IMG/VR virus record: IMGVR_UViG_2534681765_000010
Length of the DNA: 18,993 nt
DNA from: a virus
Taxonomy: Duplodnaviria > Heunggongvirae > Uroviricota > Caudoviricetes
Strand: one strand, 5' to 3'
Below the pieces are notes generated by a model, which worked only from the letters and a program-made list of their open reading frames with translations, searched no databases and was not told where the DNA came from. Shown piece by piece: positions 623 to 18,993 of this stretch. The translations under genes were made by a program, and so were the position numbers. Numbering within the stretch: the first letter of the stretch is position 1; the number at the start of each line of letters is the position of its first letter.

Positions 623-646
623 TGGTCGTCAAATGACCAGTTTTTT
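622..646. terminator. Rho-independent terminator hairpin (ctggtc-gtcaaat-gaccag + tttttt), likely terminating ompW; overlaps the integrase stop codon
   Basis: Perfect 6-bp stem 622-627 / 635-640 followed by a T-run 641-646 on the plus strand. Confidence 0.6.
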
Positions 647-1759
647 CCACTCCTTACCACGTGCATCGTTGTAAATATCGGTCATTTTTTGATTCGAATG
701 GCCAAGCAAAATTTGGGTGTCGATCCCTTGCTCCCTGAACAAACGCTCCGACAATGATCGCTGTTCATGGAAAGAGGGTGGGGTACCATTAGCGCACCAG
801 TTGTAATCTACAGAGTCCCGCGCTTTTTTAAATGCAACTGTTAACGTTGCTGGCTTAACCATCCCGCCGCGCTTGGCTGTCCCTTTCGCATGATGGTGGT
901 GCAATAGCCACGGACTAAGAACGCAATCGCGACAGGATGACGCCACATCATCCAGGGTGAGATTTAATTTATTGCAACGCAGAGCAAGAGGGATGGCAAT
1001 CCGGGTTCCTGTTTTTTGCTGTTCGACATGAAGATAACCATCCCGGATATCCGAAAATTGCATTTTGCAAATATCTGAAAGGCGCTGGCCTGTCATCAGT
1101 GCCAGCAGCATGCCGCGCTGTAAAAAGTAACCATCCTTTTCCGCTGCGTTATAAATCATCATCCACTCATCAAAAGTCAGTCGCTGCCTTGATATCCGCA
1201 CCTGCGGTTTTTTTGCCGATTCTGCAGGGTTAAAGCCTGGCGGAACATCGCCTGTTTGCTGGGCTTCCCGGAAAACATCGATCAGTACCTTCCTGAAAAT
1301 TTGTCCCATTCTGTTATGTCCTCTGGCCTTGTACTCTTCCAGCACCGATACCACATCTTTTACGGTTATGGCATCTAACGGTCTGGTGCCAAAACGTTCA
1401 TCAAATACCCTGAGAGGGGCCGCTTTTTGTTTCAGCGTGTTGAGTTTGATCTCTCCGTTTTCATATCTTTCCTGTTGAATTTTTCTGTAATTATTCAGAA
1501 AAATGGAAACGGTTGATGAACCGCCGGTATCATTAATAATTTTCTCCTGCAGACTGAGCATTTGTTTCATTTGCTGCCTGGCAAGACGGCTGTTCGCTTC
1601 TGCTGCAATAGTTTCTGCCAGTTTCTGGTCAATACTGCCGAGACCGTGATTTTTGCCTGTTATGGGATGCCTGTAACGCCAGTAAACTTTGTTATTTCTT
1701 TTGTCAAAATACGGAGATAATCCCGGAACATCAGTTTTATATTTTCGCGGGCGCGCCAT
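629..1759 (-). CDS. int: Phage integrase, tyrosine recombinase family
   Basis: 376-aa ORF; R-box-like TGQRLSDI and C-terminal LLGHSNQKMTDIYND with the catalytic Tyr; sits at the prophage end next to the att-like region and overlaps the xis start. Confidence 0.9.
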   Translation of the reverse strand: MARPRKYKTDVPGLSPYFDKRNNKVYWRYRHPITGKNHGLGSIDQKLAETIAAEANSRLARQQMKQMLSLQEKIINDTGGSSTVSIFLNNYRKIQQERYENGEIKLNTLKQKAAPLRVFDERFGTRPLDAITVKDVVSVLEEYKARGHNRMGQIFRKVLIDVFREAQQTGDVPPGFNPAESAKKPQVRISRQRLTFDEWMMIYNAAEKDGYFLQRGMLLALMTGQRLSDICKMQFSDIRDGYLHVEQQKTGTRIAIPLALRCNKLNLTLDDVASSCRDCVLSPWLLHHHHAKGTAKRGGMVKPATLTVAFKKARDSVDYNWCANGTPPSFHEQRSLSERLFREQGIDTQILLGHSNQKMTDIYNDARGKEWKKLVI

Positions 1760-5140: not shown

Positions 5141-5538
5141 ACTTTAAAAAGGGCAGCAGAGCAGTCACGGAGTAAAACTGATACCACCAAACGTCACCAG
5201 AAAATTGATAACAGAGGGCGTTGCAGCGGGGTTGTCACTTAAGCGTATGGTCAACCTGGCAACCCGGTGTCTCAATGGGGGAGGAATAACCCCGCCATAC
5301 TTACCGCCGCGCCATTTCGCGGAGTGCCACAACCGGAAGCGCACGGTCGAATTAAATTTAACGACACCGTACAGTGAGACGAACTTCGCCGTGCGCTTTC
5401 GCGTTATGCCCTGGCTTTTCAGGGATATATCCTTTCAGTAAACTGTCAGTACCGGATTCTTATCCGTGTCCGGCGCACGACCACACGTGGCAGCGTGTTG
5501 GTCTCCATTTTTAACCCAGAACCTCAATGGAGGATAAA

Positions 5539-6843: not shown

Positions 6844-7482
6844 TTAAATATCTTGTTGAATTTTAAAGCATACGCCCAATATGCAAGATAGATCATCCAG
6901 CATAATTGAAGGGTAGCGAGGATTCGTGGGGACTAAAAGAATATCCGGCCCTTCTATCTCCAGTTTACGAATGACAGGTGTTGTGGTCCCTTTGGGTAAG
7001 GCAAGGACAATATTTCCTGGTTGTACGGTTCGATCGGGATCAACAAAAACTGTTGAACCATTTGGGATGGAAACTCCCCCACCAGATGTTGACATACTGT
7101 CACTCTCTAGAACAACTGCAAAGGTATTGGCCGGGATTTCTCCGACAAGCTGCACACAAGAGGTTATTGAGGAATTTTTCATATAATCACTCCAGCTTGC
7201 TGCCTGCTGAAGTGATAGTAGCGGAACCGTTTTTATCGGCGGTAAAGATAGATCAAGCGAATCACCTGTATTTAACTCTCCTCCATTAAGAAGCCAATTT
7301 TCGTTTACTTTCAATATCTTTGCCAGTGAACTTATGTAACGCGAGGACGGCGCTCCTCCACCGTTCATCCATTGACTTACGGAGCCTTTTGATGCGCCAG
7401 TGGCATTGACAAGGTCTTTGCCTTTCAGGTTTAGCGCATGCATACGTTGGGTTATGCGTTCAGATATTGTTTGCTTGCTCAT
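6844..7482 (-). CDS. cI: CI-like prophage repressor (N-terminal HTH, C-terminal LexA/S24-like autocleavage domain)
   Basis: 212 aa; N-terminal LNLKGKDLVNATGASKGSVSQWMNG helix-turn-helix; C-terminal Ser (VLESDSMS) and Lys (VIRKLE) consistent with an S24 Ser-Lys dyad; divergent from the Cro-like gene across an operator-like intergenic region. Confidence 0.85.
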   Translation of the reverse strand: MSKQTISERITQRMHALNLKGKDLVNATGASKGSVSQWMNGGGAPSSRYISSLAKILKVNENWLLNGGELNTGDSLDLSLPPIKTVPLLSLQQAASWSDYMKNSSITSCVQLVGEIPANTFAVVLESDSMSTSGGGVSIPNGSTVFVDPDRTVQPGNIVLALPKGTTTPVIRKLEIEGPDILLVPTNPRYPSIMLDDLSCILGVCFKIQQDI

Positions 7483-7804: not shown

Positions 7805-8226
7805 AAATCAAGCATGAACACATCCGCATGGCGATGAATGCCTGGGCGCGTCCTGATGGCGAAAAAGTTCCAGCAGCTGGAATAACCCAGGCTTATTTTG
7901 AGTTGGGTATGACGTTCCCAGAACTGTATGACGACAGCCATCCGGAAGCCCTGGCTCGCAATACCCAGAAAATTTTCCGCTGGATAGAGAAAGACACCCC
8001 TGATGCAGTTGAAAAAATTCAGGCGTTGTTACCAGCGATCGAAAAGGCAATGCCACCTTTGCTGGTGGCCAGAATGCGCAGCCACAGTTCAGCTTATTTT
8101 CGGGAGCTGGTGGAGACGCGGGAGCGACTGGTGAGAGACGCTGATGATTTTGTCGCAGTGGCAATCGCCGGTTTCAATCAGATGAACCGTGGTGGCCCGG
8201 CAGGAAATGCTGTGGCAGTGCATTGA
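7801..8226 (+). CDS. YdaT-like (CII-analogue) regulatory protein
   Basis: 141 aa beginning MKIKHEHI, as I recall for Rac prophage YdaT; immediately follows the Cro-like gene. Confidence 0.65.
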   Translation: MKIKHEHIRMAMNAWARPDGEKVPAAGITQAYFELGMTFPELYDDSHPEALARNTQKIFRWIEKDTPDAVEKIQALLPAIEKAMPPLLVARMRSHSSAYFRELVETRERLVRDADDFVAVAIAGFNQMNRGGPAGNAVAVH

Positions 8227-8297
8227 GTGATAATAGCCATATCGAATCACTTCCGGCAACTCGTGAGTAAAAAGATTCGGTATCAGAAGAGGTGAGT

Positions 8298-9368
8298 ATG
8301 GCTAACGCCTGGCTCAGATTATGGCATGACATGCCAAATGACCCTAAGTGGCGAACAATTGCCAGGGTGTCAGGGCAGTCAATTGCAACAGTGATGGCAG
8401 TGTATATCCACCTCCTGGTGAGCGCGTCACGAAATGTCACGCGAGGTCACATTGATGTCACGACAGAAGATTTGGCAAGTGCGCTCGACGTGACAGAAGA
8501 GGTAATTGATTCAATTTTGCAGACGATGCAGGGGCGGGTACTTGATGGTGATTTAATCACTGGATGGGAAAAACGCCAGGTGCTTAAAGAGGACAACGGC
8601 AATATTTCGCAAACCGCAAAATCTCCTGCAGAGCGCAAGAGGGCGCAGCGAGAGAGGGAAAGAAAGCGGGAACAAAATGGCGATTGTCACGGCGCGTCAC
8701 GAAATGTCACGCACATGTCACGACGAGTCACGACAGATAAAGATACAGATAAAGATACAGATCAAGAAGATCAAAACACTATGGTCCATGGCGTAAAAAA
8801 CGCCACGAACCAGGCAGGGGATGTTCAGACCGTCAATCTTGGTCAGCCAGCAGGCACGACACCGGAAGCCGATTCAGCGTATGCGCTGAAAGCCGATTCG
8901 GGCGCTGTGCAGCAGGTGATGACCGCAAGGCCGGAGCAATCACACCAACTGCAGCAGCCTGAAGCCGATTCCGCCATTCAGCGGGAAGCCGATCGGGTAG
9001 TCACGGAAAACACCGGGCAGCCTGTGAGACGAGTGGATTATCCGGATGTGTTCGAACAGGTCTGGCGGGAATACCCGTTGCGTGCTGGGGCAAACCCGAA
9101 GAAATCCGCTTTCAGTGCCTGGAAGGCCAGATTACGCGAGGGGGTGTCACCAGAGGCCATGCTGGATGGCGTGAGGCGTTACGCAAGATACCTTGCGGCT
9201 ACCGGGAAAACGGGAACGGAATTTGTTCAGCGAGCGACGACGTTTTTTGGACCGGACCGGAATTTTGAAAACCCCTGGCTGCTCCCGGTAAGCGGCACGA
9301 ACAACCAGCGTTGTGTGAATCATATTTCTGAACCGGATACCGAAATTCCACCGGGCTTCAGGGGGTAA
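8298..9368 (+). CDS. Replication initiator protein (lambda O-like in function) with origin-like iterons inside the gene
   Basis: 357 codons from ATG 8298 (gaggtgag RBS; track start is an upstream GTG at 8292); position after cro/cII-like genes; two clusters of 10-bp-phased gtcac repeats plus an AT-rich tandem repeat within the ORF. Confidence 0.65.
   Translation: MANAWLRLWHDMPNDPKWRTIARVSGQSIATVMAVYIHLLVSASRNVTRGHIDVTTEDLASALDVTEEVIDSILQTMQGRVLDGDLITGWEKRQVLKEDNGNISQTAKSPAERKRAQRERERKREQNGDCHGASRNVTHMSRRVTTDKDTDKDTDQEDQNTMVHGVKNATNQAGDVQTVNLGQPAGTTPEADSAYALKADSGAVQQVMTARPEQSHQLQQPEADSAIQREADRVVTENTGQPVRRVDYPDVFEQVWREYPLRAGANPKKSAFSAWKARLREGVSPEAMLDGVRRYARYLAATGKTGTEFVQRATTFFGPDRNFENPWLLPVSGTNNQRCVNHISEPDTEIPPGFRG
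8422..8461. repeat. Iteron cluster 1: four gtcac motifs phased at 10-11 bp (8426, 8436, 8446, 8457)
   Basis: Read directly; contains the 21-bp unit gcgcgtcacgaaatgtcacgc (8422-8442), repeated exactly at 8692-8712. Confidence 0.65.
8686..8759. repeat. Iteron cluster 2: five gtcac motifs phased at 10-11 bp (8686-8731), then 12-bp AT-rich tandem repeat gataaagataca x2 (8736-8759)
   Basis: Read directly; iterons followed by an AT-rich tract is the classic layout of a lambdoid ori inside the initiator gene. Confidence 0.65.
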
Positions 9369-9408
9369 GTGTTGATTTCTGGTCATGAGGTAATTTTCAG
9401 GAGGACTT

Positions 9409-9831
9409 GTGGCAAAAGTTTTTACACAAGAAGAGCGGGAAAAAATTAAAGGGCAGGTTGTTGAACTCGTACGCCAGAGTGGGCGCGAGACGTTACGACA
9501 ACTGGAAACTAAAACTGGGGCAACAAGATATCTGATGAGCGTTCTGGCCAGAGAGCTGGTTGCCAGTGGCGATGTATACAACTCTGGTTACGGGTTATTC
9601 CCGTCTGAACAGGCGCGTAAGGACTGGCAAAATGCCCGTAAAAAGCTCTCAAGGGCAAAGCTGAAGAAACCATCTGCGGTTGATCCGGACCTTATCTGGT
9701 CATTACCTGACGGAGAAATACGTCGCTACGACAGGCGTCAGAACATAATCTGTCGCGAGTGCCGGAAGAGTGAGGTTATGCAGCGAGTGCTGGCGTTTTA
9801 TCAGGGTAATTTTCAGGAGGTGATGGCGTGA
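9409..9831 (+). CDS. Hypothetical protein (140 aa), possible DNA-binding / replication accessory
   Basis: GTG start 9409 preceded by the 16-bp RBS module ggtaattttcaggagg; sits between the initiator gene and the DUF4406-like gene. Confidence 0.5.
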   Translation: MAKVFTQEEREKIKGQVVELVRQSGRETLRQLETKTGATRYLMSVLARELVASGDVYNSGYGLFPSEQARKDWQNARKKLSRAKLKKPSAVDPDLIWSLPDGEIRRYDRRQNIICRECRKSEVMQRVLAFYQGNFQEVMA

Positions 9832-10123
9832 GAGTGAGAGTCTATATCGCCGGTCCAATGACCGGGTATAAAAATTTCAACCGTGAGGCGTTTCACAATG
9901 CGGAAGAGGAACTGAAACGGGAAGGGCATACCGTTTTAAATCCGGCTGTGCTTCCGGATGGGCTGACACAGCCGCACTACATGGATATTGCATGGCAATG
10001 ATTCGTTGTGTGGATGCGATTTACATGCTGAAAGGCTGGCAGCGGTCAGCAGGTGCTAAGGCAGAACTGGCGCTGGCGGAGAAACTGGGGCATGCAGTTA
10101 TTTTCCAGGAGGAGGTACAGTGA
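9828..10123 (+). pseudogene. DUF4406-like (nucleoside 2-deoxyribosyltransferase-like) gene split by a -1 frameshift near 9996-10001
   Basis: Part 1 (9828-10001) VRVYIAGPMTGYKNFNREAFHNAEEELKREGHTVLNPAVLPDGLTQPHYMDIAWQ; part 2 (9998-10123) MIRCVDAIYMLKGWQRSAGAKAELALAEKLGHAVIFQEEVQ. Joined they follow the DUF4406 pattern as I recall it; caa-tga looks like caa-atg minus one A. Confidence 0.55.
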
Positions 10124-10395
10124 ATATCGACGCAACAATGACGATTGGTACGGCCCTCAATACGGGGCTGGCGCTTCTTGGTTGGTGCTACATCATGTTC
10201 TGCTCATGGCGGTGGCTGTCACTGATGTTACTGAAAGAATGGAATAAACGCTGTAAACAGACGCAGCGGCAGAAGGCAATGAATGCGTTTTTTGAGACCT
10301 TCGATATTGACAGTATAGAACCAGGAGAGCCAGCTCGCGTGATTAGCAGAGGTGACGTTGTAATTCTTGTATACCGGAGTGAAGAGAAAGCATAA
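10120..10395 (+). CDS. Small hypothetical membrane protein (91 aa)
   Basis: GTG start overlapping the upstream stop; hydrophobic stretch LALLGWCYIMFCSWRWLSLMLL. Confidence 0.4.
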   Translation: MNIDATMTIGTALNTGLALLGWCYIMFCSWRWLSLMLLKEWNKRCKQTQRQKAMNAFFETFDIDSIEPGEPARVISRGDVVILVYRSEEKA

Positions 10396-10509
10396 TCCAA
10401 ATCTGAATAATTAAATCCAGCACTGTAAATAAAATTTAATCCTTAACCGGAGGGATTTCTGCACCCTCAGAACATCAGGAGGCCGCCCGAAAGGGCGGTG
10501 GAGATAATA

Positions 10510-11034
10510 ATGGAAATAACTAAAGAACGATTATTGGAAATAGCAAATCTTAGTGAAAGGGCATTAAGTGATGGGAGGATTATTTCTCCTGATGCTTATG
10601 AATCAGTTACAAGTATAGAAATAATAACGATGGCCAGGATGCTTCTTGGTTGCCTCAAAAAAGAATATAAAAAAAAGGTGGATAGCAATGCTAATATATA
10701 TGATATTTTGGACAGTTGGGGGGCTTGGGCTGCAGCTGGAAATAGTTCTATCAACTGGCAGCAAGTGGCTGATAAATATAAAGATGTAGTACCTCATGGT
10801 AAGAAATTACGCCGTCAGTGTGGCAACGATGAAGGTCGTATGATTGATACCTGCATGTTGAAGCTTAAACAATATAGAATAGATGACTATGAGTTAATTA
10901 TCGCTCATTTTGTTATAGGTATATCTTTGCGTACAATAGCACGAAGGTACAAATGTTCAGATGGAACAATAAGAAAGAATATACAACTTACAATGGGAGT
11001 ATTGTTAGGATTGTCTTTTTATGTGCAATTATAG
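10510..11034 (+). CDS. Antiterminator Q-like protein (Q933-type fold suspected) with N-terminal extension; first gene of the AT-rich island
   Basis: ATG 10510 with ggag RBS; motifs LDSWGAWAAAG, RRQCGNDEGRMIDTCMLKLK and CSDGTIRKNIQ resemble the Stx-phage Q family as I recall it; AT-rich codon usage. Confidence 0.45.
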   Translation: MEITKERLLEIANLSERALSDGRIISPDAYESVTSIEIITMARMLLGCLKKEYKKKVDSNANIYDILDSWGAWAAAGNSSINWQQVADKYKDVVPHGKKLRRQCGNDEGRMIDTCMLKLKQYRIDDYELIIAHFVIGISLRTIARRYKCSDGTIRKNIQLTMGVLLGLSFYVQL

Positions 11035-11039
11035 ATATA

Positions 11040-11519
11040 TCACATGAGCCTTGTTATGTCCTTTAGACGCGACCAGGTAGTATAAAATTTTTTAAATGTA
11101 ATAAGCAGGAAAAAAATTCCCACTTGGAGTAATAGTTGGGCATATGTGTGCTCGTCGGCATCTTTTACTAGTGGGAATTTAAACTTTAGTGTATCAGGGA
11201 AAAATAATAAAATGATAAAAATAATACAAACTGATAGTAACCATCCCATAGTGGAGTGCATTTCTTCGGTCAGTTTTTTCAAATAACCAGTTTTTCCTAT
11301 ATTTCTAATTAGCGTATTATCTCTAGCTGAAGCAATCAAGGTAAGCGAACCTAAAACAAAGCCAAATAATATCCCAGAAAATGTAGAAACGGCCGAAGCG
11401 ATTGGCTGAATTTGTGCAAAATTTAGCTTTGCAGAAAGAGGCCATGCGATGATACAAAAAACAACAGAGGCTAAATTATAACCATAACTGTACAAAGTTA
11501 TCAATTTCCCCTTTTTCAT
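11040..11519 (-). CDS. Small integral membrane protein (159 aa, about 4 predicted TM helices); distal gene of a two-gene operon
   Basis: Four hydrophobic segments (LASVVFCIIAWPL; VSTFSGILFGFVLGSLTLIASA; MGWLLSVCIIFIILLFF; LLLQVGIFFLLITF); starts 16 nt downstream of the 304-aa gene; strongly AT-rich. Confidence 0.7.
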   Translation of the reverse strand: MKKGKLITLYSYGYNLASVVFCIIAWPLSAKLNFAQIQPIASAVSTFSGILFGFVLGSLTLIASARDNTLIRNIGKTGYLKKLTEEMHSTMGWLLSVCIIFIILLFFPDTLKFKFPLVKDADEHTYAQLLLQVGIFFLLITFKKFYTTWSRLKDITRLM

Positions 11520-11534
11520 ACCATCGCTCCAAAA

Positions 11535-12449
11535 TTAATCAACTCTTTGATTGGCTACTCCAAAGTATGCCTTCAATTCATCATCTTTACTATCTTTTGC
11601 AAGAGTTAAGGCGCTCCAAATGCTGCCAACTAATGGATACCTACCTCCAAGTTCAACATCTGTGTAGTAGACTAATTTGTCTGCTACAAGATCGATAGGA
11701 TGCTGTACACCGGTCTCAATGTCTTGGGTTTCTAGTTTAAGTTTTTCAACCTCAAAAGTCTCTAGTGTTTCTTTAAAGGCTCTTTTTAGTTGAGAACCTA
11801 GATAGCGAGATTCAGGATCTTCAGAACGACTATCCCCACGTAATGTAAGATTTACTTTGGCAGAATTAGTACCATTTAGAGTGGCTATCAATGCATTGTT
11901 GAAGTTATGTTCAACATCCTCATATAGTTGCACATTCTTTGGCCGAGCGATACCGATTTCTAGAGTTTTGATTCGAACTTCATTACGCATCAACCACTTT
12001 AAACTACTGGTCTGAATGATGGGATTAACAGTTGTATTTTGTGAACTGTTGGAAAGATATTTACTTAATAGCACCCAGCCATAACAGAGTCTGTTTCGTT
12101 GAATTATTAAAACTGAGTCTTGGGTATAAAAATGAAAATAAGCTTTTTCTAATAAGTTTTCATTGATTTCAAGTTTAATTTCTCTTTCTTCACCTCCGGC
12201 TACAGCAACATGAGGGAGATTATTGGTTCTGTGTTTTCCTATAACTCCCCTGAAACCATAGTCGGTTCTTTCCATGAAGCGCATTTCAACTAGTTTATTT
12301 CCTATTTTACGTACAGTTTTGTCTCGGCCTTCGCTGTATGACTCAAAAATTTTTGAAAAAACAGCTTCAGGTGAATTAACTCCTGCATTTGTATCAGTGC
12401 TTATAGTGTGACATTGATAAAAATCGAAGAAAAAGCGCTTGCTAGCCAT
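11535..12449 (-). CDS. Hypothetical 304-aa cytoplasmic protein; promoter-proximal gene of the two-gene operon (candidate sensor of an abortive-infection pair)
   Basis: Long uninterrupted ORF, AT-rich; no Walker A or other motif I recognise; preceded by a ~390-bp AT-rich promoter-like region (12450-12840). Confidence 0.7.
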   Translation of the reverse strand: MASKRFFFDFYQCHTISTDTNAGVNSPEAVFSKIFESYSEGRDKTVRKIGNKLVEMRFMERTDYGFRGVIGKHRTNNLPHVAVAGGEEREIKLEINENLLEKAYFHFYTQDSVLIIQRNRLCYGWVLLSKYLSNSSQNTTVNPIIQTSSLKWLMRNEVRIKTLEIGIARPKNVQLYEDVEHNFNNALIATLNGTNSAKVNLTLRGDSRSEDPESRYLGSQLKRAFKETLETFEVEKLKLETQDIETGVQHPIDLVADKLVYYTDVELGGRYPLVGSIWSALTLAKDSKDDELKAYFGVANQRVD

Positions 12450-12897
12450 TGCAAAAATTTCCTGTAAAAAATAATTACATACTTAAGATACTACAAAGAA
12501 TAATGCGTACGCAAAATTTTTTGTTGAGTAGAATATGTTCGCGGGGTATTTTTCGTTAAGATATAATTACCATGGTAACTTTTGCGTTGGTAATGCATTA
12601 TGTGGTGGAGAAAAAGAGAGAGTCTTATCTTTAAATTATCGCCAGCCTATATGACTATATGAGTAGTATTTAGATGGGAAATTGTTGAGTTATTGAAAGG
12701 AACCATAACCTTTATGTAAAATTACTGCGGGTGCTTGAGGTTATCTGTCTCAGGCATGCCACCAAAAGGCAGATAGAGAAAAGCCCCAGTTAACGTTACG
12801 CGTCCTGCAAGACGTTTAACATTAATCTGAGGCTCAATCTATGAACGGCAAATCTAGGTTAGCCTCTTACGTGCCGAAAGGCAAGGAGAAGCAGGCT

Positions 12898-13053
12898 ATG
12901 AAGCAGCAAAAGGCGATGTTAATCGCCCTGATCGTCATCTGTTTAACCGTCATAGTGACGGCACTGGTAACGAGGAAAGACCTCTGCGAGGTACGAATCC
13001 GAACCGGCCAGACGGAGGTCGCTGTCTTCACAGCTTACGAACCTGAGGAGTAA
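12898..13053 (+). CDS. hokD: Hok/Gef-family type I toxin (51 aa), HokD/RelF-like
   Basis: MKQQKAMLIALIVICLTVIVTALVTRKDLCEVRIRTGQTEVAVFTAYEPEE: single TM helix then the conserved RKxLCE..R....EVA.F.AYE Hok pattern; aaggag RBS 10 nt upstream. The track ORF start at 12841 is an in-frame extension that is probably not translated. Confidence 0.7.
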   Translation: MKQQKAMLIALIVICLTVIVTALVTRKDLCEVRIRTGQTEVAVFTAYEPEE

Positions 13054-13121
13054 GAGACCAGGTGAGGGAGAAATCCCTCGCCACCTCTGATGAGTCAGGC
13101 ATCCTCAACGCACCCGCACTT

Positions 13122-13148
13122 AACCCGCTTCGGCGGGTTTTGTTTTTT
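13122..13148 (+). terminator. Rho-independent terminator (aacccgc-ttcg-gcgggtt + T-run) downstream of hok
   Basis: Perfect 7-bp GC-rich stem, 4-nt loop, then tgtttttt; read directly. Confidence 0.65.
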
Positions 13149-13220
13149 CCTGGCATTCTGGTTTACAATTCGCACGCCAGCCTGAACAACTGGCACCTGC
13201 TGCGCCAGCAGAGACAACCG

Positions 13221-13493
13221 ATGGCGCACAAAACCAAATTTCACAATTCTGATACCGCCCTTGCCATCCGGCATGGGCGGCGTTCACACGCATTTAAAAC
13301 CGACTGGTACCAACACCCACCATGTACTGAAGAACAGGCCGAATGGCTAATTCATAACTACCGCAGACGCGGATACGAGATTAAGAAAGCCCTCAGCCTC
13401 GATTATCGTCACTGGATAATCTATGTCAGGCTCCCTTATTCCGAACGCCCACCGCGTCCGTCCCGCACATTCCAGCAACGCATCTGGAGGTAA
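13221..13493 (+). CDS. Hypothetical protein (90 aa), Rem-like by position (between hok and the DUF968 gene, as in Qin prophage)
   Basis: ATG 13221 lies downstream of the terminator; the track ORF from 13062 runs through the terminator and is probably over-extended; stop taa 13491-13493 immediately precedes the next gene start. Confidence 0.35.
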   Translation: MAHKTKFHNSDTALAIRHGRRSHAFKTDWYQHPPCTEEQAEWLIHNYRRRGYEIKKALSLDYRHWIIYVRLPYSERPPRPSRTFQQRIWR

Positions 13494-13494
13494 C

Positions 13495-14544
13495 GTGCGG
13501 GTATTACTTCGACCTGTTCCGGTACCGGAACTTGGGCTGGTGGTGCTAAAACCGGGCCGTGAATCCATGCAGGTATTTCATAACCCTCGAGTTCTGGTGG
13601 AGCCGGAACCGAAAAGCATGCATGGTCTGCCGTCCGGAGTCGTTCCTGCTGTTCGCCAGCCGCTGGCGGAGGATAAATCATTACTGCCATTTTTCAGCGA
13701 TGAGCGGGTGATTCGTGCTGCTGGTGGTGCTGGTGCATTGTCTGACTGGCTGTTACGCCACGTTAAATCCTGCCAGTGGCCTCATGGTGACTATCATCAC
13801 AGTGAAACCGTTATTCACCGTTATGGTACTGGCGCAATGGTGTTGTGCTGGTACTGCGACAACCAGCTGCGTGACCAGACTTCTGAATCACTCGGGCAGC
13901 TTGCTCACCAAAACCTGTCAGCATGGATGATTGATGTCATCCGCCACGCAATGAATGGCACGCAGGAGCGGGAATTATCGCTGGCTGAATTATCCTGGTG
14001 GGCGGTCTGCAATCAGGTGGCGGACGCGCTACCAGAGGCAGCATTACGTCGTTCTCTGGGGTTACGTGCGGAAAAAATTCGCTCAGTATACCGCGAGAGC
14101 GACATCGTGCCGGGAGAGCAGACCGCCACCAGCATGCTGAAGCAGCGCACAAAAAATCTTGCGCCGCTGCCTCACGCCCACCAGCAACAGAACCCACCAC
14201 AGGAAAAGACGGTGGTCAGCATTGCCGTTGATCCTGAGTCTCCGGAATCTTTCATGAAACGACCTAAACGTCGCCGCTGGGTTAACGAGAAATACACACG
14301 CTGGGTGAAGACACAGCCGTGTGCGTGTTGTGGTAAGCCAGCCGACGATCCCCATCACCTGATTGGTCATGGTCAGGGCGGAATGGGGACAAAATCTCAC
14401 GATATTTTCACGCTACCGCTGTGTCGGGGGCATCACAACGAGCTTCATGCGGATCCGCTGGCGTTCGAAGAAAAGCATGGTTCTCAGGTTGATTTAATTT
14501 TTCGTTTTCTTGATCACGCCTTTGCAACTGGCGTGCTTGGGTAA
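13495..14544 (+). CDS. DUF968-like prophage protein with C-terminal Cys/His-rich (HNH-like) motif
   Basis: GTG 13495 after a ggagg RBS (alternative ATG 13567; track start 13423 overlaps the upstream gene); C-terminal CACCGKPADDPHHLIGHGQGGMGTKSHDIFTLPLCRGHHNELH. Confidence 0.6.
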   Translation: MRVLLRPVPVPELGLVVLKPGRESMQVFHNPRVLVEPEPKSMHGLPSGVVPAVRQPLAEDKSLLPFFSDERVIRAAGGAGALSDWLLRHVKSCQWPHGDYHHSETVIHRYGTGAMVLCWYCDNQLRDQTSESLGQLAHQNLSAWMIDVIRHAMNGTQERELSLAELSWWAVCNQVADALPEAALRRSLGLRAEKIRSVYRESDIVPGEQTATSMLKQRTKNLAPLPHAHQQQNPPQEKTVVSIAVDPESPESFMKRPKRRRWVNEKYTRWVKTQPCACCGKPADDPHHLIGHGQGGMGTKSHDIFTLPLCRGHHNELHADPLAFEEKHGSQVDLIFRFLDHAFATGVLG

Positions 14545-14556
14545 AAGAGGTGACTG

Positions 14557-14916
14557 ATGCTCATAGATTTGGTTTTACCTTACCCGCCGACGGTGAACAC
14601 TTACTGGCGACGCCGTGGCAGCACATATTTTATCTCGGAGGAGGGAAAGCGTTATCGCCGGGCTGTGGCGCTTATTGTTCGCCAGCAGCGGCTGAAATTA
14701 AACCTGTCCGGAAGGCTGGCGATAAAGGTGATTGCAGAGCCACCGGATAAACGTCGTCGTGACCTGGACAATATCCTGAAAGCACCACTGGATGCACTGA
14801 CACATGCGGGGTTGCTTATCGACGACGAGCAGTTTGATGAAATTAATATTGTGCGCGGTCAGCTTGTTCCTGGTGGGCGGTTGGGGATAAAAATCACAGA
14901 ACTGGAGTGCGCATGA
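14557..14916 (+). CDS. rusA: RusA Holliday-junction resolvase
   Basis: 119 aa; LPYPPTVNTYWRRRG ... DKRRRDLDNILKAPLDAL ... GGRLGIKITEL matches RusA motifs including the catalytic Asp cluster as I recall them. Confidence 0.85.
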   Translation: MLIDLVLPYPPTVNTYWRRRGSTYFISEEGKRYRRAVALIVRQQRLKLNLSGRLAIKVIAEPPDKRRRDLDNILKAPLDALTHAGLLIDDEQFDEINIVRGQLVPGGRLGIKITELECA

Positions 14917-15602
14917 ATAACCAGTATTTACAGTTTGTTCGTGAGCAACTCATGATTGCCACCGCCGATTTGAGTGGATCAACAAAAGGGCAGCTTGAAG
15001 CCTGGCAGGAGAATGCCATGTTCGATACAGGGCGTTACAGGCGAAAAAAAATCCGGTACCGCGATGAAGTGACTGGAAAAATGATAACGCGGGATAATCC
15101 ACCAATCCCGGGAAAGCAATCGCTGGCGAAAGGTTCATCAATTGCCCTGGTCAGTCCGGTTGAGTTTTCGACATCATCATGGCGACGCGCCGTTCTGTCT
15201 CTTGAAGAGCATCAGAAGGCGTGGGTGCTGTGGGTATACAGTGAAAATCCGAGTTGGGATTATCAGGTGGTCATTGCGAAATGGGCGTGGGATAAGTTTC
15301 AGGTGCATTTTGGCACCAGAAAAATTACAGGGAAAACGCTTGAGCGTCTGAAGAAATTAATCTGGCTGGCGGCGCAGGATGTCAGGGGGAGGATTACTGG
15401 GCGTGACGTCTACCAGCGACAGGAACTTGCCAGACTGTGTGGAGTTAAGCCTGACAACTGGAGCCATAATTATGCGAACTACTGGCGTGAGATGTGCGAC
15501 ATTTTTAAGAAACTCGATACAGAATCCTTGATTTGCACCGTGAAAATGAGATCGCAACAAAAAGCGACCTTTTCACGACGAGATATTGCAAAAGTCAATT
15601 AA
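14907..15602 (+). CDS. Late-gene antiterminator Q-like protein (QuuQ-type, assigned mainly by position after rusA)
   Basis: 231-aa ORF overlapping rusA by 10 nt and followed directly by a strong intrinsic terminator; the sequence itself is not one I can match confidently. Confidence 0.5.
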   Translation: MRMNNQYLQFVREQLMIATADLSGSTKGQLEAWQENAMFDTGRYRRKKIRYRDEVTGKMITRDNPPIPGKQSLAKGSSIALVSPVEFSTSSWRRAVLSLEEHQKAWVLWVYSENPSWDYQVVIAKWAWDKFQVHFGTRKITGKTLERLKKLIWLAAQDVRGRITGRDVYQRQELARLCGVKPDNWSHNYANYWREMCDIFKKLDTESLICTVKMRSQQKATFSRRDIAKVN

Positions 15603-15649: not shown

Positions 15650-15674
15650 AACCCGCTTAAATGCGGGTTTTTTG
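15650..15674 (+). terminator. Rho-independent terminator (aacccgc-ttaaat-gcgggtt + tttttt) after the Q-like gene
   Basis: Perfect 7-bp stem with the same stem sequence as the hok terminator at 13122-13139, then a T-run; read directly. Confidence 0.75.
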
Positions 15675-15703
15675 CTTAACTCTGTGGACCTTTTTATCTG
15701 TAG

Positions 15704-15728
15704 TTGTAAGATATGGATATTCTTACAA
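15704..15728. promoter_or_regulatory. Perfect palindromic operator-like site ttgtaaga-N9-tcttacaa about 20 bp upstream of the kinase start
   Basis: 8-bp inverted repeat arms (15704-15711 / 15721-15728), read directly; sits between the upstream terminator and the kinase RBS. Confidence 0.55.
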
Positions 15729-15746
15729 TTTAGGTCGGTGAGCTTA

Positions 15747-16511
15747 ATGGAAGAACAGCACGGTAATTACTTTATAAAACGAATTCAGTTGATTGGAAGG
15801 GGTGCATTTGGCTTTGTTGAACACGTTAAGGTTTACAACCTCAACAAGGGTGAATGTGGGGATTATGCTAGAAAGGTTTTAGCCCCCGAAAAACCAGAGC
15901 TTTTGGCGCAAATAGAGCAGTTTAGAAGGCGTTTTAAAAGGGAGGTCGTGTATCAATCACATTGCGTACATAGCAATATTGTTCCTATTTATTTGTGCGA
16001 TTTGTTTGCCGAGAATCCATGGTTCATTATGGATAAAGCAGAATGTGATCTTGAGCACGAAATAACGAACAACCTTCTTACAACAGATCAAAAAATTTCA
16101 ATAGTGAAAATGGTATTAGATGGTGTAGCTCACATCCATGCGAAAGGCTATTTACACAGAGATATAAAACCATTTAATGTCTTGCGATTTAGCGACGGAA
16201 CATACAAGGTGTCTGATTTTGGTCTGGTAAAAGATACAAATCCCGAAGGGGATACCACTAAATTGACCGAGATCGGTACCCGTATGGGAAGTACAAGATA
16301 TATGGCTCCCGAGATTTTATATAATGCCGAGTATTCAGTTAAGACTGATGTTTATGCGGTGGGGCGGTTAATTGAGGACTTAAATTTAGATGATAAAAAA
16401 ATAAAGCCTATCATAGCGAAGTGTACCAGGATGGATAAAGATGATAGATATCAGACAATAGATGATGTGGCGTTTGATTTTGTGCATTCTTTTTTAAGGA
16501 GTGAGTCATGA
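15747..16511 (+). CDS. Hanks-type (eukaryotic-like) Ser/Thr protein kinase, catalytic domain only
   Basis: Gly-rich loop GRGAFGFV, AxK lysine (YARKVL), catalytic loop HRDIKPFN, DFG (SDFGLVKD), APE (YMAPEIL), DxxxxG (DVYAVGRL); ATG 15747 (track start 15672 is upstream in-frame and overlaps the terminator). Confidence 0.8.
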   Translation: MEEQHGNYFIKRIQLIGRGAFGFVEHVKVYNLNKGECGDYARKVLAPEKPELLAQIEQFRRRFKREVVYQSHCVHSNIVPIYLCDLFAENPWFIMDKAECDLEHEITNNLLTTDQKISIVKMVLDGVAHIHAKGYLHRDIKPFNVLRFSDGTYKVSDFGLVKDTNPEGDTTKLTEIGTRMGSTRYMAPEILYNAEYSVKTDVYAVGRLIEDLNLDDKKIKPIIAKCTRMDKDDRYQTIDDVAFDFVHSFLRSES

Positions 16512-17251
16512 TTCAGCTGATAGCGACTTCATCATTCTCGTATCCAAAAGAACCAGGTAGGGTCAACGAAGATTCATTGCTTCCTCCCAAAATTGTAGGG
16601 GATGGCATCTTATTTGCCGTAGCTGATGGTGTAGGTTCATACACTGGTGCCAGTCAGGCTTCATCAATGGCAATTGCTGAACTTTCAGCATTGACAAGCT
16701 TATCTTTTGACACAGTTCCGGATGTATTTGATGAAGTTAAGCGAAAGGTTATGTCGTTAGCTGATGTTAATGATGAGTTCGATAAAGCTGCTACTACACT
16801 TACGTTTTGTTATGTTTGTGATAGCGGAATTATTATTGGTCATATTGGTGATTGTCGTTTGTATTGCATTGGAGAGAAGAAAGCATACCAATTGACGAAG
16901 GACGATACCAGGCATCAGATGCTAATTGATCAGAATATTTTTAAACCCAGAGATTTGAAGGATAAACCGGGCAAAAATATCTTAACGACGGCTATAGCCT
17001 CAAATGTTGATATGGAATACGACTGTGATTTTATCACATGGAAAGATTTACCTAGTATTAACGGGGTATATCATCTGTGTATCATGTCTGATGGGGTTCA
17101 TAACGTTTGGGAAAAACGCCCCAGATTTACATCAAATACGATGAGTAATAGTCAGAAGTTTTCTAATGGCATTTTGCGTCGTATAGAGAGAGCCGGACCT
17201 GATGATGACTTTTCTTTAGTAAGTATAATGGTGCGTGTGACGTCAGATTAG
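16508..17251 (+). CDS. PP2C-like Ser/Thr protein phosphatase, translationally coupled to the kinase
   Basis: Start overlaps the kinase stop (ATGA); PP2C-like motifs FAVADGVGS, IGHIGDCRLYC (GDxR), LTKDD, MSDGVHN. Confidence 0.7.
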   Translation: MIQLIATSSFSYPKEPGRVNEDSLLPPKIVGDGILFAVADGVGSYTGASQASSMAIAELSALTSLSFDTVPDVFDEVKRKVMSLADVNDEFDKAATTLTFCYVCDSGIIIGHIGDCRLYCIGEKKAYQLTKDDTRHQMLIDQNIFKPRDLKDKPGKNILTTAIASNVDMEYDCDFITWKDLPSINGVYHLCIMSDGVHNVWEKRPRFTSNTMSNSQKFSNGILRRIERAGPDDDFSLVSIMVRVTSD

Positions 17252-18917: not shown

Positions 18918-18993
18918 GGCCCTTTAGCTCAGTGGTGAGAGCGAGCGACTCATAATCGCCAGGTCGCTGGTTCAAATCCAGCAAGGGCCACCA
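18918..18993 (+). tRNA. tRNA with CAU anticodon, Ile2 (lysidine)-like by resemblance to E. coli ileX/ileY; Met cannot be excluded from the anticodon alone
   Basis: 76 nt ending CCA; acceptor stem ggccctt/aagggcc; D-arm gctc...gagc; anticodon loop ctCATaa; T-arm gctgg-ttcaaat-ccagc. Folded by eye. Confidence 0.85.

Follow-up and report, generated by a model that had tools for sequence, protein, structure and literature searches.

What is encoded by the AT-rich stretch in the nin region of a lambdoid E. coli prophage, and does its minus-strand gene pair protect the lysogen against other phages? These are the questions raised by the locus considered here, which lies within 18,993 nucleotides of Caudoviricetes DNA, called the window throughout. 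The original prediction had pointed to a resemblance with RexA and RexB of phage lambda, and RexAB is, to our knowledge, the oldest known abortive-infection system, with a mechanism that is not settled. In our analysis, the best explanation of positions 11040-12449 of the minus strand is a two-gene module of the prophage that acts in phage exclusion (abortive infection) and is distantly related to RexAB, and we consider this explanation likely. The features discussed below are the following:

10500-12711, no strand: AT-rich inserted module in a variable slot of the lambdoid prophage, which extends from the DUF4752 gene to the hokD/sok locus
10510-11034, plus strand: antiterminator-like gene of the Q family, whose product has 174 aa when read from the RefSeq start, an ATG at 10510 (the ORF spans 10498-11034)
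11040-11519, minus strand: 159-aa protein with four transmembrane helices, RexB-like component and putative membrane effector
11520-11534, minus strand: intercistronic spacer of 15 nt with a GGAG ribosome-binding site
11535-12449, minus strand: 304-aa soluble DUF6731 protein, RexA-like component, putative cytoplasmic sensor and DNA-binding dimer
12450-12728, minus strand: non-coding region upstream of the operon, with 31% GC over 12450-12711 and unlike its counterpart in the Klebsiella version of the module

The compositional shift, which had first been judged by eye, is borne out by calculation. Positions 10500-12711 contain 35.3% GC, in contrast to 51.2% for 8000-10499 and 51.7% for 12712-15600, and sliding windows give values of 0.34-0.40 across approximately 10250-12750 and of about 0.50 on either side. 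Homology to other prophages ends at 10499 and restarts at 12712, and related prophages carry about 1.3 kb of different cargo in the same slot between DUF4752 and hokD/sok. As the hok/sok regulatory region of hokD occupies 12729-12903 (Rfam sok, 108.7 bits), the island ends at about 12711-12728 and not at 12840, as initially proposed; the gap that separates the minus-strand genes likewise measures 15 nt instead of the 16 nt given before. The complete island is present in 19 of 5426 complete E. coli genomes, its flanks in 3843, and this distribution supports the earlier suggestion of horizontally acquired cargo. The listed carriers are human E. coli isolates, and across the island the 15 listed genomes share 98.9-100% identity. 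The module has 73% nucleotide identity to Klebsiella prophages, with DNA homology that begins at 10687 and stops at 12450. These sequence relationships indicate that the gene pair and the C-terminal part of the PF06530 Q gene came jointly from the Q-lysis slot of another lambdoid phage.

The pair belongs to the nin region: it is located approximately 3.5 kb to the right of cI (6844-7482) and is encoded on the strand opposite to the early-right genes. Because the operon is antisense to the early-right operon of the prophage, its own promoter is the only possible route to expression. The upstream region contains short repeats and palindromes, and a minus-strand search of this region for sigma-70 promoters revealed no consensus-grade site, the best candidate scoring 8/12. 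The sole terminator-like site was discarded due to its position inside the gene for the 159-aa protein.

The 304-aa protein is a member of the Pfam family DUF6731 (PF20505), which it matches with 48.1 bits (cut-off 27) over residues 1-268 and model positions 1-269 of 295. All 37 homologues match the same family, and RefSeq lists the protein as 'DUF6731 family protein'; one source names a 54%-identical homologue 'DUF4747 domain-containing'. The family members found include several from Vibrio, and phage records contain a single homologue, from a Pseudomonas phage. The literature searched does not mention DUF6731, and it holds no experiments on any member. Hydropathy analysis (Kyte-Doolittle) revealed no hydrophobic segments. 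The best structural match of the protein model is RexA, and the model predicts the RexA fold for this protein, in which a beta/alpha domain is inserted into a globular domain that is thereby split; the inserted domain of RexA serves dimerisation.

At the sequence level, the original prediction had seen no confident direct match to the Rex proteins, and our searches agree with it. BLASTP of the 304-aa protein against lambda RexA returned nothing, and phmmer and family-profile searches against all PDB sequences returned nothing relevant. Comparison of the DUF6731 alignment with RexA by hhalign was negative whether one or two RexA sequences were used, and again when remote DUF6731 members were added. 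The RexA profile is shallow because the canonical RexA family is too narrow in phage records (19 records). The Pfam models for RexA (PF15969) and DUF4747 matched neither the window protein at E<=0.1 nor any of the 37 family members at E<=1. Similarly, the PADLOC RexA models matched neither the window protein nor 14 diverse DUF6731 members at E<=1, and an NCBIfam scan of DUF6731 members provided nothing useful.

The 159-aa protein has the features of a small membrane protein with four transmembrane helices, as had been expected. Its AlphaFold model (pLDDT 78.7) contains long helices at residues 3-24, 34-64, 79-106 and 126-158, and three segments exceed the Kyte-Doolittle threshold, with a fourth that is less hydrophobic. 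By the positive-inside rule alone, the protein would be oriented N-in/C-in. The most conserved stretch of its family is the central loop, comprising N73, T77, G78, Y79 and L80 within the pattern NTLI-N--KTGYL.

The connection of this protein to RexB emerges from profile comparisons. BLASTP against lambda RexB returned nothing and Pfam RexB (PF15968) gave no match to the window protein at E<=0.1. The PADLOC RexB profile matched it with an E of 0.0015, aligning residues 14-83 with profile positions 15-82. Comparison of the two family alignments by hhalign was collinear with an E of 0.0074, a value that was reached by 2 of 100 block-shuffled controls; with the expanded profile, the E improved to 1.1e-4 (probability 57%) and the register, 20-83 on 20-84, was unchanged. 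An exhaustive search with the family profile reached 153 clusters at 50% identity. Among the best 150 of these 153, 63 match PADLOC RexB and four match Pfam RexB, and other PADLOC models match at most one each. Three of the four RexB-matching intermediates that were looked up are encoded directly downstream of a DUF6731 gene, and one of these three is itself a weak Pfam RexB match. Together, the profiles provide good evidence for placing the 159-aa protein in the RexB superfamily, a placement that does not extend to membership of PF15968. A Foldseek search of its model against viral predicted structures returned otherwise uncharacterised phage proteins in the top 50, with lambda RexB not among them; the best named match was a 165-aa Sbash protein (TM-score 0.54) with a non-significant E of 0.41.

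The two genes are inherited as a unit. They are adjacent in all eight genome loci and in all 21 viral loci (29/29 in two collection scans), and such conserved adjacency is not due to chance. The pair is distributed over Gammaproteobacteria, a Saprospiraceae MAG and Geomonas, and its surroundings vary. In Pseudomonas phage AUS531phi, the order is cI, DUF6731 and the RexB-like gene, and in the metagenomic viral contig L035 a repressor with HTH_3 and S24 domains ends 20 nt upstream of the pair; this placement downstream of cI in the immunity region is seen in these two relatives and is absent for the window pair. In one prophage with a P2 capsid-type protein (Pfam P2_N/P2_C), the pair adjoins the integrase, and in the Klebsiella-type prophages it lies between the Q gene and the lysis genes. 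The Rahnella pair is carried by a Rep3/ParA element, and the V. vulnificus pair by an integrative mobilisable element whose insertion site is a Mg-chelatase-like gene, for which reason an integron setting for this copy was rejected. The RexA/RexB-like architecture envisaged in the original prediction is thus recovered at three levels: in the fold of the first protein, in the profile link of the second via intermediates, and in relatives located directly after cI-type repressors.

In the RexAB-type module that we favor, which would be expressed in the lysogen, the 304-aa protein would by analogy reside in the cytoplasm, probably as a dimer, bind DNA and sense when another phage infects the cell. 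It would then activate the 159-aa protein, probably via the conserved central loop, and the activated protein would compromise the membrane. Macromolecular synthesis would stop as a consequence and the infection would be aborted. The roles of the two proteins may also be reversed, as in mycobacteriophage Butters, such that the toxic or antiviral activity resides in the soluble protein, which its membrane partner would only sequester until infection sets it free. PMC12894663 describes the cytosolic RexA-like protein of the Butters gp30/gp31 pair as the effector and the membrane protein as dispensable for defence. The two arrangements are indistinguishable from sequence, and the strict adjacency of the genes and the conserved central loop are equally consistent with an activated effector and with a sequestering partner. 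However, PMC12894663 compares five Rex-like systems, in four of which the membrane protein is the effector, and the Sucellos system needs both genes (bioRxiv 10.1101/2024.07.02.601686). We therefore regard the reversed arrangement as unlikely.

An exclusion function itself could also be questioned. The pair could serve prophage housekeeping or regulation, for example through an RdgC/RexA-like DNA-binding protein that acts on the lysis-lysogeny switch or on recombination, and through a membrane protein with an influence on protein stability. Side activities of this kind have been reported for both RexA and RexB of lambda. A role specific to the switch is nonetheless improbable because the pair also occurs beside an integrase, on the Rahnella Rep3/ParA element and on the V. 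vulnificus mobilisable element. Strict co-inheritance with a membrane protein furthermore suits an effector pair, and we give the non-defence explanation little weight in comparison with a phage-exclusion module.

The relation of the Q-like gene to the pair deserves separate consideration, since this gene had been described as divergent and upstream and as a possible regulator of the operon. Its product does contain the Q-family domain that had been recognized (PF06530, E 2.8e-30, residues 66-172), matches phrog_79, and matches phrog_3323 on its N-terminus. About 60 unrelated residues at the N-terminus precede the Q domain (approximately residues 62-173), and residues 62-173 share 57% identity with the 122-aa Q of Klebsiella prophages. 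The gene is not divergent but lies tail to tail with the operon, the two stop codons (11034 and 11040) being separated by 5 nt. The window shares this arrangement with E. coli 504838 and with the four Klebsiella-type prophage loci that were examined: a PF06530 Q gene directly adjoins the 3' end of the pair, and the stop codons are 5 nt apart or overlap. This recurrence could be taken as a sign of a three-gene system in which the Q-like protein is a dedicated transcriptional regulator, but several observations make this very unlikely. Owing to the convergent arrangement, Q lies past the end of the operon and not at its promoter, and the upstream region of the operon was not co-inherited with Q. 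The gene is also missing from the eight genome loci, as determined by phmmer, and it is not among the genes called around the pair in Vibrio and Rahnella; none of the non-enterobacterial settings of the pair contains it. What precedes the pair in AUS531phi and the viral contigs is a gene of the repressor type and not Q. The Klebsiella-type prophages have no called Q-family gene other than this PF06530 Q, which is located shortly before the lysis genes and is thus presumably the late antiterminator of that phage itself. The window contains a second, separate Q (PF06323, 14907-15602) ahead of the late region, and the Q-like gene does not lie just before the lysis genes, as the antisense pair, hokD, DUF968, RusA and the PF06323 Q come after it. 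The Q-like gene is probably a passenger or a mosaic joint, outside the Rex-like system.

That the pair is a decaying remnant, moved by recombination and functionless in this prophage, agrees with the frameshifted DUF4406 gene nearby, which is a sign of decay in the prophage, with the mosaic fusion in the Q-like gene and with the failure to find a good promoter, but is hardly credible given that both ORFs are full length, that the window proteins carry the conserved residue in every invariant column listed for the two alignments (A1 and A2), that the ribosome-binding site is good and that the island is 98.9-100% identical in the 15 listed genomes.

A more far-reaching interpretation of the phage-exclusion module can be formulated, which we consider possible but rather doubtful. 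DUF6731 and its four-helix partner may constitute a large, cross-phylum and completely unannotated branch of the Rex superfamily that moves among four or more kinds of slot in mobile elements (behind cI, the Q-lysis slot, beside integrases, and on plasmid-like elements). In lambdoid phages, the fixed antisense, tail-to-tail arrangement with Q would then not be accidental: upon induction, early or late transcripts of the prophage would run through the operon and silence it, and the prophage would thereby be spared from its own abortive-infection module. Such a branch would have been overlooked by PADLOC 2023, and its RefSeq labels are 'DUF6731' and 'hypothetical'.

If DUF6731 and its partner join the Rex superfamily, a function would be proposed for DUF6731 and for about 150 clusters of small membrane proteins, and Rex-type modules would need no location in the immunity region. 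The pair would also offer a second, E. coli-native and genetically tractable Rex system to be set beside lambda with regard to the triggering phages, the contact of the membrane protein's loop with the soluble protein, and the activating signal. Defence-annotation tools that require matches to both a RexA and a RexB profile would overlook the module, which may influence the phage susceptibility of the human E. coli isolates that carry the island.

How does this pair compare with the known systems? The likeness to lambda RexA and RexB (PF15969 and PF15968; RexA structure PDB 8TWQ) is close in architecture. In both cases, the first gene encodes a soluble protein of about 280-300 aa and the second, on the same strand, a four-helix membrane protein of about 145-160 aa, and the spacer is 15 nt in lambda as well (rexA end 36275, rexB start 36259). 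The first three hydrophobic segments are at residues 16-34, 40-65 and 89-107 in the 159-aa protein and at 8-26, 42-66 and 84-102 in RexB. Both pairs are prophage-borne, RexA is the top structural match of the soluble protein, and the membrane protein is collinear with RexB. In contrast to these similarities, the soluble protein lacks detectable sequence similarity to RexA and the direct similarity of the membrane protein to RexB is marginal. Moreover, the window pair is found in the nin region and runs antisense to the early-right operon; it is not part of a cI-rexA-rexB immunity operon. The systems also differ in breadth, as canonical RexA is confined to 19 phage records, whereas the superfamily of the membrane protein reached here comprises 153 clusters at 50% identity.

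Only five Rex-like systems have been described by the count of a 2026 paper (PMC12894663), and Sucellos, which the current DefenseFinder models include, was added by a 2024 preprint (bioRxiv 10.1101/2024.07.02.601686). RexABpp of P. putida prophage P1 (PP_5643/PP_5644), compared here by description only, is apparently larger, with a His-tagged A protein of 37.5 kDa and a B protein that has a residue 181, in contrast to 304 and 159 aa here, and, unlike the window pair, it is close to a cI-like repressor (PMC12894663). A clamp-like dimer and a ring-like pore have been reported for RexApp and RexBpp. Sucellos (SclA/SclB) resides in a cassette of the V. cholerae superintegron and, in the description of its authors, resembles RexAB in structure without matching the RexA and RexB Pfam domains; both genes are needed, defence is of the abortive kind, the cassette carries a promoter of its own and relatives occur mainly in prophages (bioRxiv 10.1101/2024.07.02.601686). 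As judged from primer names in the preprint, its genes appear to be VCA0367 and VCA0368. Compared by description, it differs in its integron setting and in its relatives, which are 'often in Salmonella', while the sole A homologue among phage records here is in a Pseudomonas phage.

The actinobacteriophage systems Sbash gp30/gp31, CarolAnn gp44/gp43 and Butters gp30/gp31, which contain DUF4747 proteins, likewise combine a soluble protein with a small four-helix membrane protein; DUF4747 has been reported for both Sbash gp30 and RexA. These Rex-like systems are expressed from the prophage and confer heterotypic defence. They differ from the window pair in host phylum, and none of the aligned DUF6731 sequences has a DUF4747 match (Pfam, E<=1). 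The original prediction of a new system of sensor and membrane effector is thus sustained as far as a divergent Rex-like pair is concerned, but its novelty was overstated, because distant RexAB-type systems have been found likewise, published and validated (PMC12894663; bioRxiv 10.1101/2024.07.02.601686; PMC6426596). With RexAB-like systems already known from lambda, Sbash, CarolAnn, Butters, P. putida (RexABpp) and V. cholerae (Sucellos), the DUF6731 pair adds another member to this group.

We consider it highly probable that the 304 amino acid long protein (A) and the 159 amino acid long membrane protein (B), encoded within an AT-rich insert of this prophage (10500-12711, the island), are a homologous RexAB-type pair.

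A falls into Pfam DUF6731 (E 1.5e-12) and phrog_7651, without a match in PADLOC or NCBIfam; DUF6731 itself was not found mentioned in the searchable literature. Similarity to lambda RexA was detected neither by BLASTP with A, nor by hhalign with its family alignment, nor by searching PDB sequences with the family profile, and 37 DUF6731 members compared with Pfam at E<=1 matched neither RexA nor DUF4747. The structural model of A begins with an N-terminal sheet with helices, continues into a middle part of four long strands and several helices, and ends in a long C-terminal helix. Lambda RexA has been described as a split globular domain with an inserted dimerisation domain of four strands and four helices, and the order of elements in the model agrees with this description. 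The predicted fold of A is that of RexA, and homology between the two is likely at the level of this predicted structure.

The B model (pLDDT 78.7) consists of four long helices. Hydropathy segments are located at residues 16-34, 40-65 and 89-107, with a weaker fourth, and those of lambda RexB at 8-26, 42-66, 84-102 and 116-139. PADLOC RexB matches B weakly (E 0.0015), with residues 14-83 aligned to positions 15-82 of the profile. When 27 aligned sequences of the B family were compared by hhalign with 17 aligned RexB sequences, the match kept this register at E 0.0074. None of the reversed alignments or of 100 column shuffles attained such a score, while 2 of 100 hydropathy-preserving shuffles did. 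With the B family profile, HMMER was run exhaustively against 1.84 billion representatives and retrieved 153 clusters, nearly all of 135-165 amino acids. Among the best 150 of these, PADLOC RexB is matched by 63 (E<=0.001; best 6e-8) and Pfam RexB by four (best 9e-7); each other PADLOC model matches at most one. When the relatives were added to the B profile, hhalign aligned residues 20-83 with RexB 20-84 (E 1.1e-4, probability 57%). The most conserved motif of the B family, D/N-T-L-I-x-N-x-x-K-T-G-Y-L with invariant N73, T77 and L80, lies in the central loop and aligns opposite the conserved R-x-L-x-K-I-R-E-Y-G-Y-M of RexB. Membership of B in a RexB superfamily is well supported by these profile comparisons; the support is at superfamily level and not at that of PF15968 proper.

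When one genome per species was scanned, A homologues were directly followed by B homologues, with a spacer of 1-15 nt or an overlap, in all eight loci (Photobacterium, Aeromonas, two Pseudoalteromonas, a Saprospiraceae MAG, Endozoicomonas, Marinobacterium and Geomonas), and the same holds for 21 of 21 viral contigs. Four remote B-type proteins that match the RexB profile were looked up. For three, the gene directly 5' encodes a DUF6731 protein, and one of the three B-type proteins is itself weakly flagged as Pfam RexB. The fourth, of 146 amino acids, is encoded on a MAG contig (JADFZH010000216.1, 3083-4586) after a 343 amino acid long protein without a Pfam match, next to a divergent HTH_3/HTH_35 pair; the 343 amino acid long protein may represent another A-type family of Rex-like systems. 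In Sodalis sp. TME1 (locus L019, 2754-4000), about 1.2 kb without a called gene lie before a bona fide RexB homologue (PF15968); this stretch may be a decayed rexA at its expected place. The PADLOC candidate PDC-M67 is weakly matched by one diverse DUF6731 member (0.015) and one B-type member (1.4e-4).

The pair was associated with mobile elements in every case looked at. Pseudomonas phage AUS531phi has a lambda-like arrangement after the repressor, in which a Cro/CI regulator is followed by a DUF6731 gene (298 amino acids) and a RexB-like gene. On viral contig L035, an HTH_3 and S24 repressor ends 20 nt 5' of the pair, accompanied by a divergent HTH_35 gene, and on contigs L041 and L042 HTH_3 genes lie one gene further upstream. 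In Vibrio, the pair adjoins an integrase gene in a prophage with genes for a P2 capsid-type protein (Pfam P2_N/P2_C) and for a replication protein of the GPA type. The Rahnella copy resides on a Rep3/ParA element and the V. vulnificus copy on an integrative mobilisable element. Klebsiella-type prophages, with versions of 80% and 59% identity, have the pair antisense between Q and the lysis genes, its 3' end abutting or overlapping the 3' end of a PF06530 Q gene of 113-122 amino acids.

The window covers the early region of a lambdoid prophage of E. coli, with the following order of features:

629-1759, minus strand, integrase
between integrase and repressor, the dicB/DicF region, with DicF antisense RNA at 5151-5202 (minus strand; Rfam, 66.9 bits) and dicB present there in the near-identical 504838 prophage
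6844-7482, minus strand, cI-type repressor (HTH_3 and S24)
next, cro and ydaT
then replication genes, followed by DUF977, DUF4406 and DUF4752 genes
10510-11034, plus strand, Q-family gene, in the island
11040-11519, minus strand, B gene, in the island
11535-12449, minus strand, A gene, in the island
after the island, hokD, DUF968 and RusA genes
14907-15602, PF06323 Q gene, full length, the prophage's own Q
last, a kinase/phosphatase pair, a DNA methylase gene and a tRNA

The DUF4406 gene (9828-10123) is broken into two overlapping ORFs, 9828-10001 and 9992-10123, and its 504838 equivalent is frameshifted according to RefSeq. The tRNA (CAT anticodon, 18918-18993) lies 3' of the methylase gene and reaches the window end; ARAGORN calls it tRNA-Met, whereas its RefSeq equivalent is tRNA-Ile. 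A second AT-rich island (15672-17251, 38.7% GC), immediately 3' of the prophage's own Q gene, encodes a 279 amino acid long Ser/Thr protein kinase and an overlapping PP2C phosphatase (247 amino acids, Stp1-like). The kinase matches mad6 (E 3e-40), PD-T4-6 and Stk2 in PADLOC. The prophage of E. coli 504838, near-identical in other respects, lacks this second island.

The AT-rich shift that had been noticed by eye was borne out by calculation: sliding windows gave a GC content of 0.34-0.40 at about 10250-12750 compared to about 0.50 around it, and 10500-12711 has 35.3% GC versus 51.2% and 51.7% in the flanks. In homology searches, thousands of E. coli prophages match the window up to 10499 and from 12712 onwards, but not the island interior. 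Of 5426 complete E. coli genomes, 19 contain the full island and 3843 its flanks; in related prophages, other small genes (about 1.3 kb) occupy this slot. All 15 carriers listed are human isolates, including ATCC 43896 and a series of strains with names such as E8, E54, E1316 and E1433, and 13 E. coli records match the island with an identity of at least 99%. A recent spread within one or few E. coli lineages is suggested by this. Stx-converting and other lambdoid phages share, at 97-98% identity and without annotation, a 69 nt stretch just left of the island (10431-10499). It ends in a GC-rich hairpin without a T-run (GCCGCCC-GAAA-GGGCGGT, 10482-10499) and may mark a recombination boundary or act as a regulatory element.

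The spacer between A and B is 15 nt, not 16 nt as first noted, and contains a GGAG ribosome-binding site. Since they run antisense to the early-right operon, A and B depend on a separate promoter within 12450-12728, where none was identified (best matches 8 of 12). A promoter-like site on the plus strand (12693-12722, 10 of 12) is most likely that of the hokD mRNA, which Rfam matches from 12729, where the hok/sok control region starts (Rfam sok, 108.7 bits). The hok/sok-type locus is complete (12729-13053), with a full-length Rfam sok match at 12729-12903 and hokD (Hok/Gef, E 3e-23) inside a mok-like ORF at 12841-13053. If the locus resembles plasmid hok/sok in this respect, Sok RNA would be read leftwards, in the direction of the Rex-like operon.

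The original prediction placed the Q-like gene divergently upstream of the pair and proposed it as a possible regulator. It is in fact convergent with the pair, the stop codons being 5 nt apart. BLASTN aligns 10687-12450, which begins near residue 60 of the Q-like protein and ends at the A start codon, with the Klebsiella module at 73% identity; protein identities are 80% for A, 75% for B and 57% for the Q domain. The first approximately 60 residues of the Q-like protein (10510-10686) are foreign to Klebsiella Q and match phrog_3323, small phage proteins (E 4e-16), and the regions upstream of the two operons are unrelated. These alignments indicate that the window gained a block comprising the C-terminal part of Q, B and A, which elsewhere occupies the Q-lysis gene slot. 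The Q-like gene is the mosaic joint, and its 174 amino acid long product looks like an in-frame fusion made there, because its N-terminus matches phrog_3323 and not Klebsiella Q. The Klebsiella module is also AT-rich (40% GC versus 48% for that locus). Q is absent from every non-enterobacterial context of the pair examined, and no support was found for its proposed regulatory role.

At this locus, we infer every functional step by analogy with lambda RexAB and validated distant systems. A would be a cytoplasmic sensor, probably a dimer with non-specific DNA binding, which activates B upon infection by another phage; activated B would then damage or depolarise the membrane, so that growth stops and the infection is aborted. 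In the RexABpp system of P. putida, both genes are required, A binds DNA, and A overexpression causes B-dependent arrest and permeabilisation (PMC12894663). Sucellos of V. cholerae likewise requires both genes and has an abortive phenotype (bioRxiv 10.1101/2024.07.02.601686), and Sbash gp30/gp31 is another validated distant Rex system. A reversed logic of the Butters type, in which A is the effector and is sequestered by B, could also apply. We lean towards abortive-infection defence by the Rex mechanism, and the combined reading of a homologous RexAB-type pair with this function appears probable.

The link between DUF6731 and RexA, the size of the B-type superfamily and the recurrent antisense place between Q and lysis genes appear to be unreported in the searchable literature. 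With lambda RexAB, the pair shares its anatomy and, by analogy, would share its mode of action. Its architecture and the modelled fold of A are lambda-family features, but in the narrow sense of that family the sequence match of A to RexA and the place in the immunity operon are lacking. Set against RexABpp, the proteins of the pair appear smaller. The RexAB-like interpretation is supported by the predicted fold of A and the profile links of B, while the suggestion of a new system was overstated: distant RexAB-type systems known by structure and not by sequence are already published, and the pair is a further member of these and no new kind.
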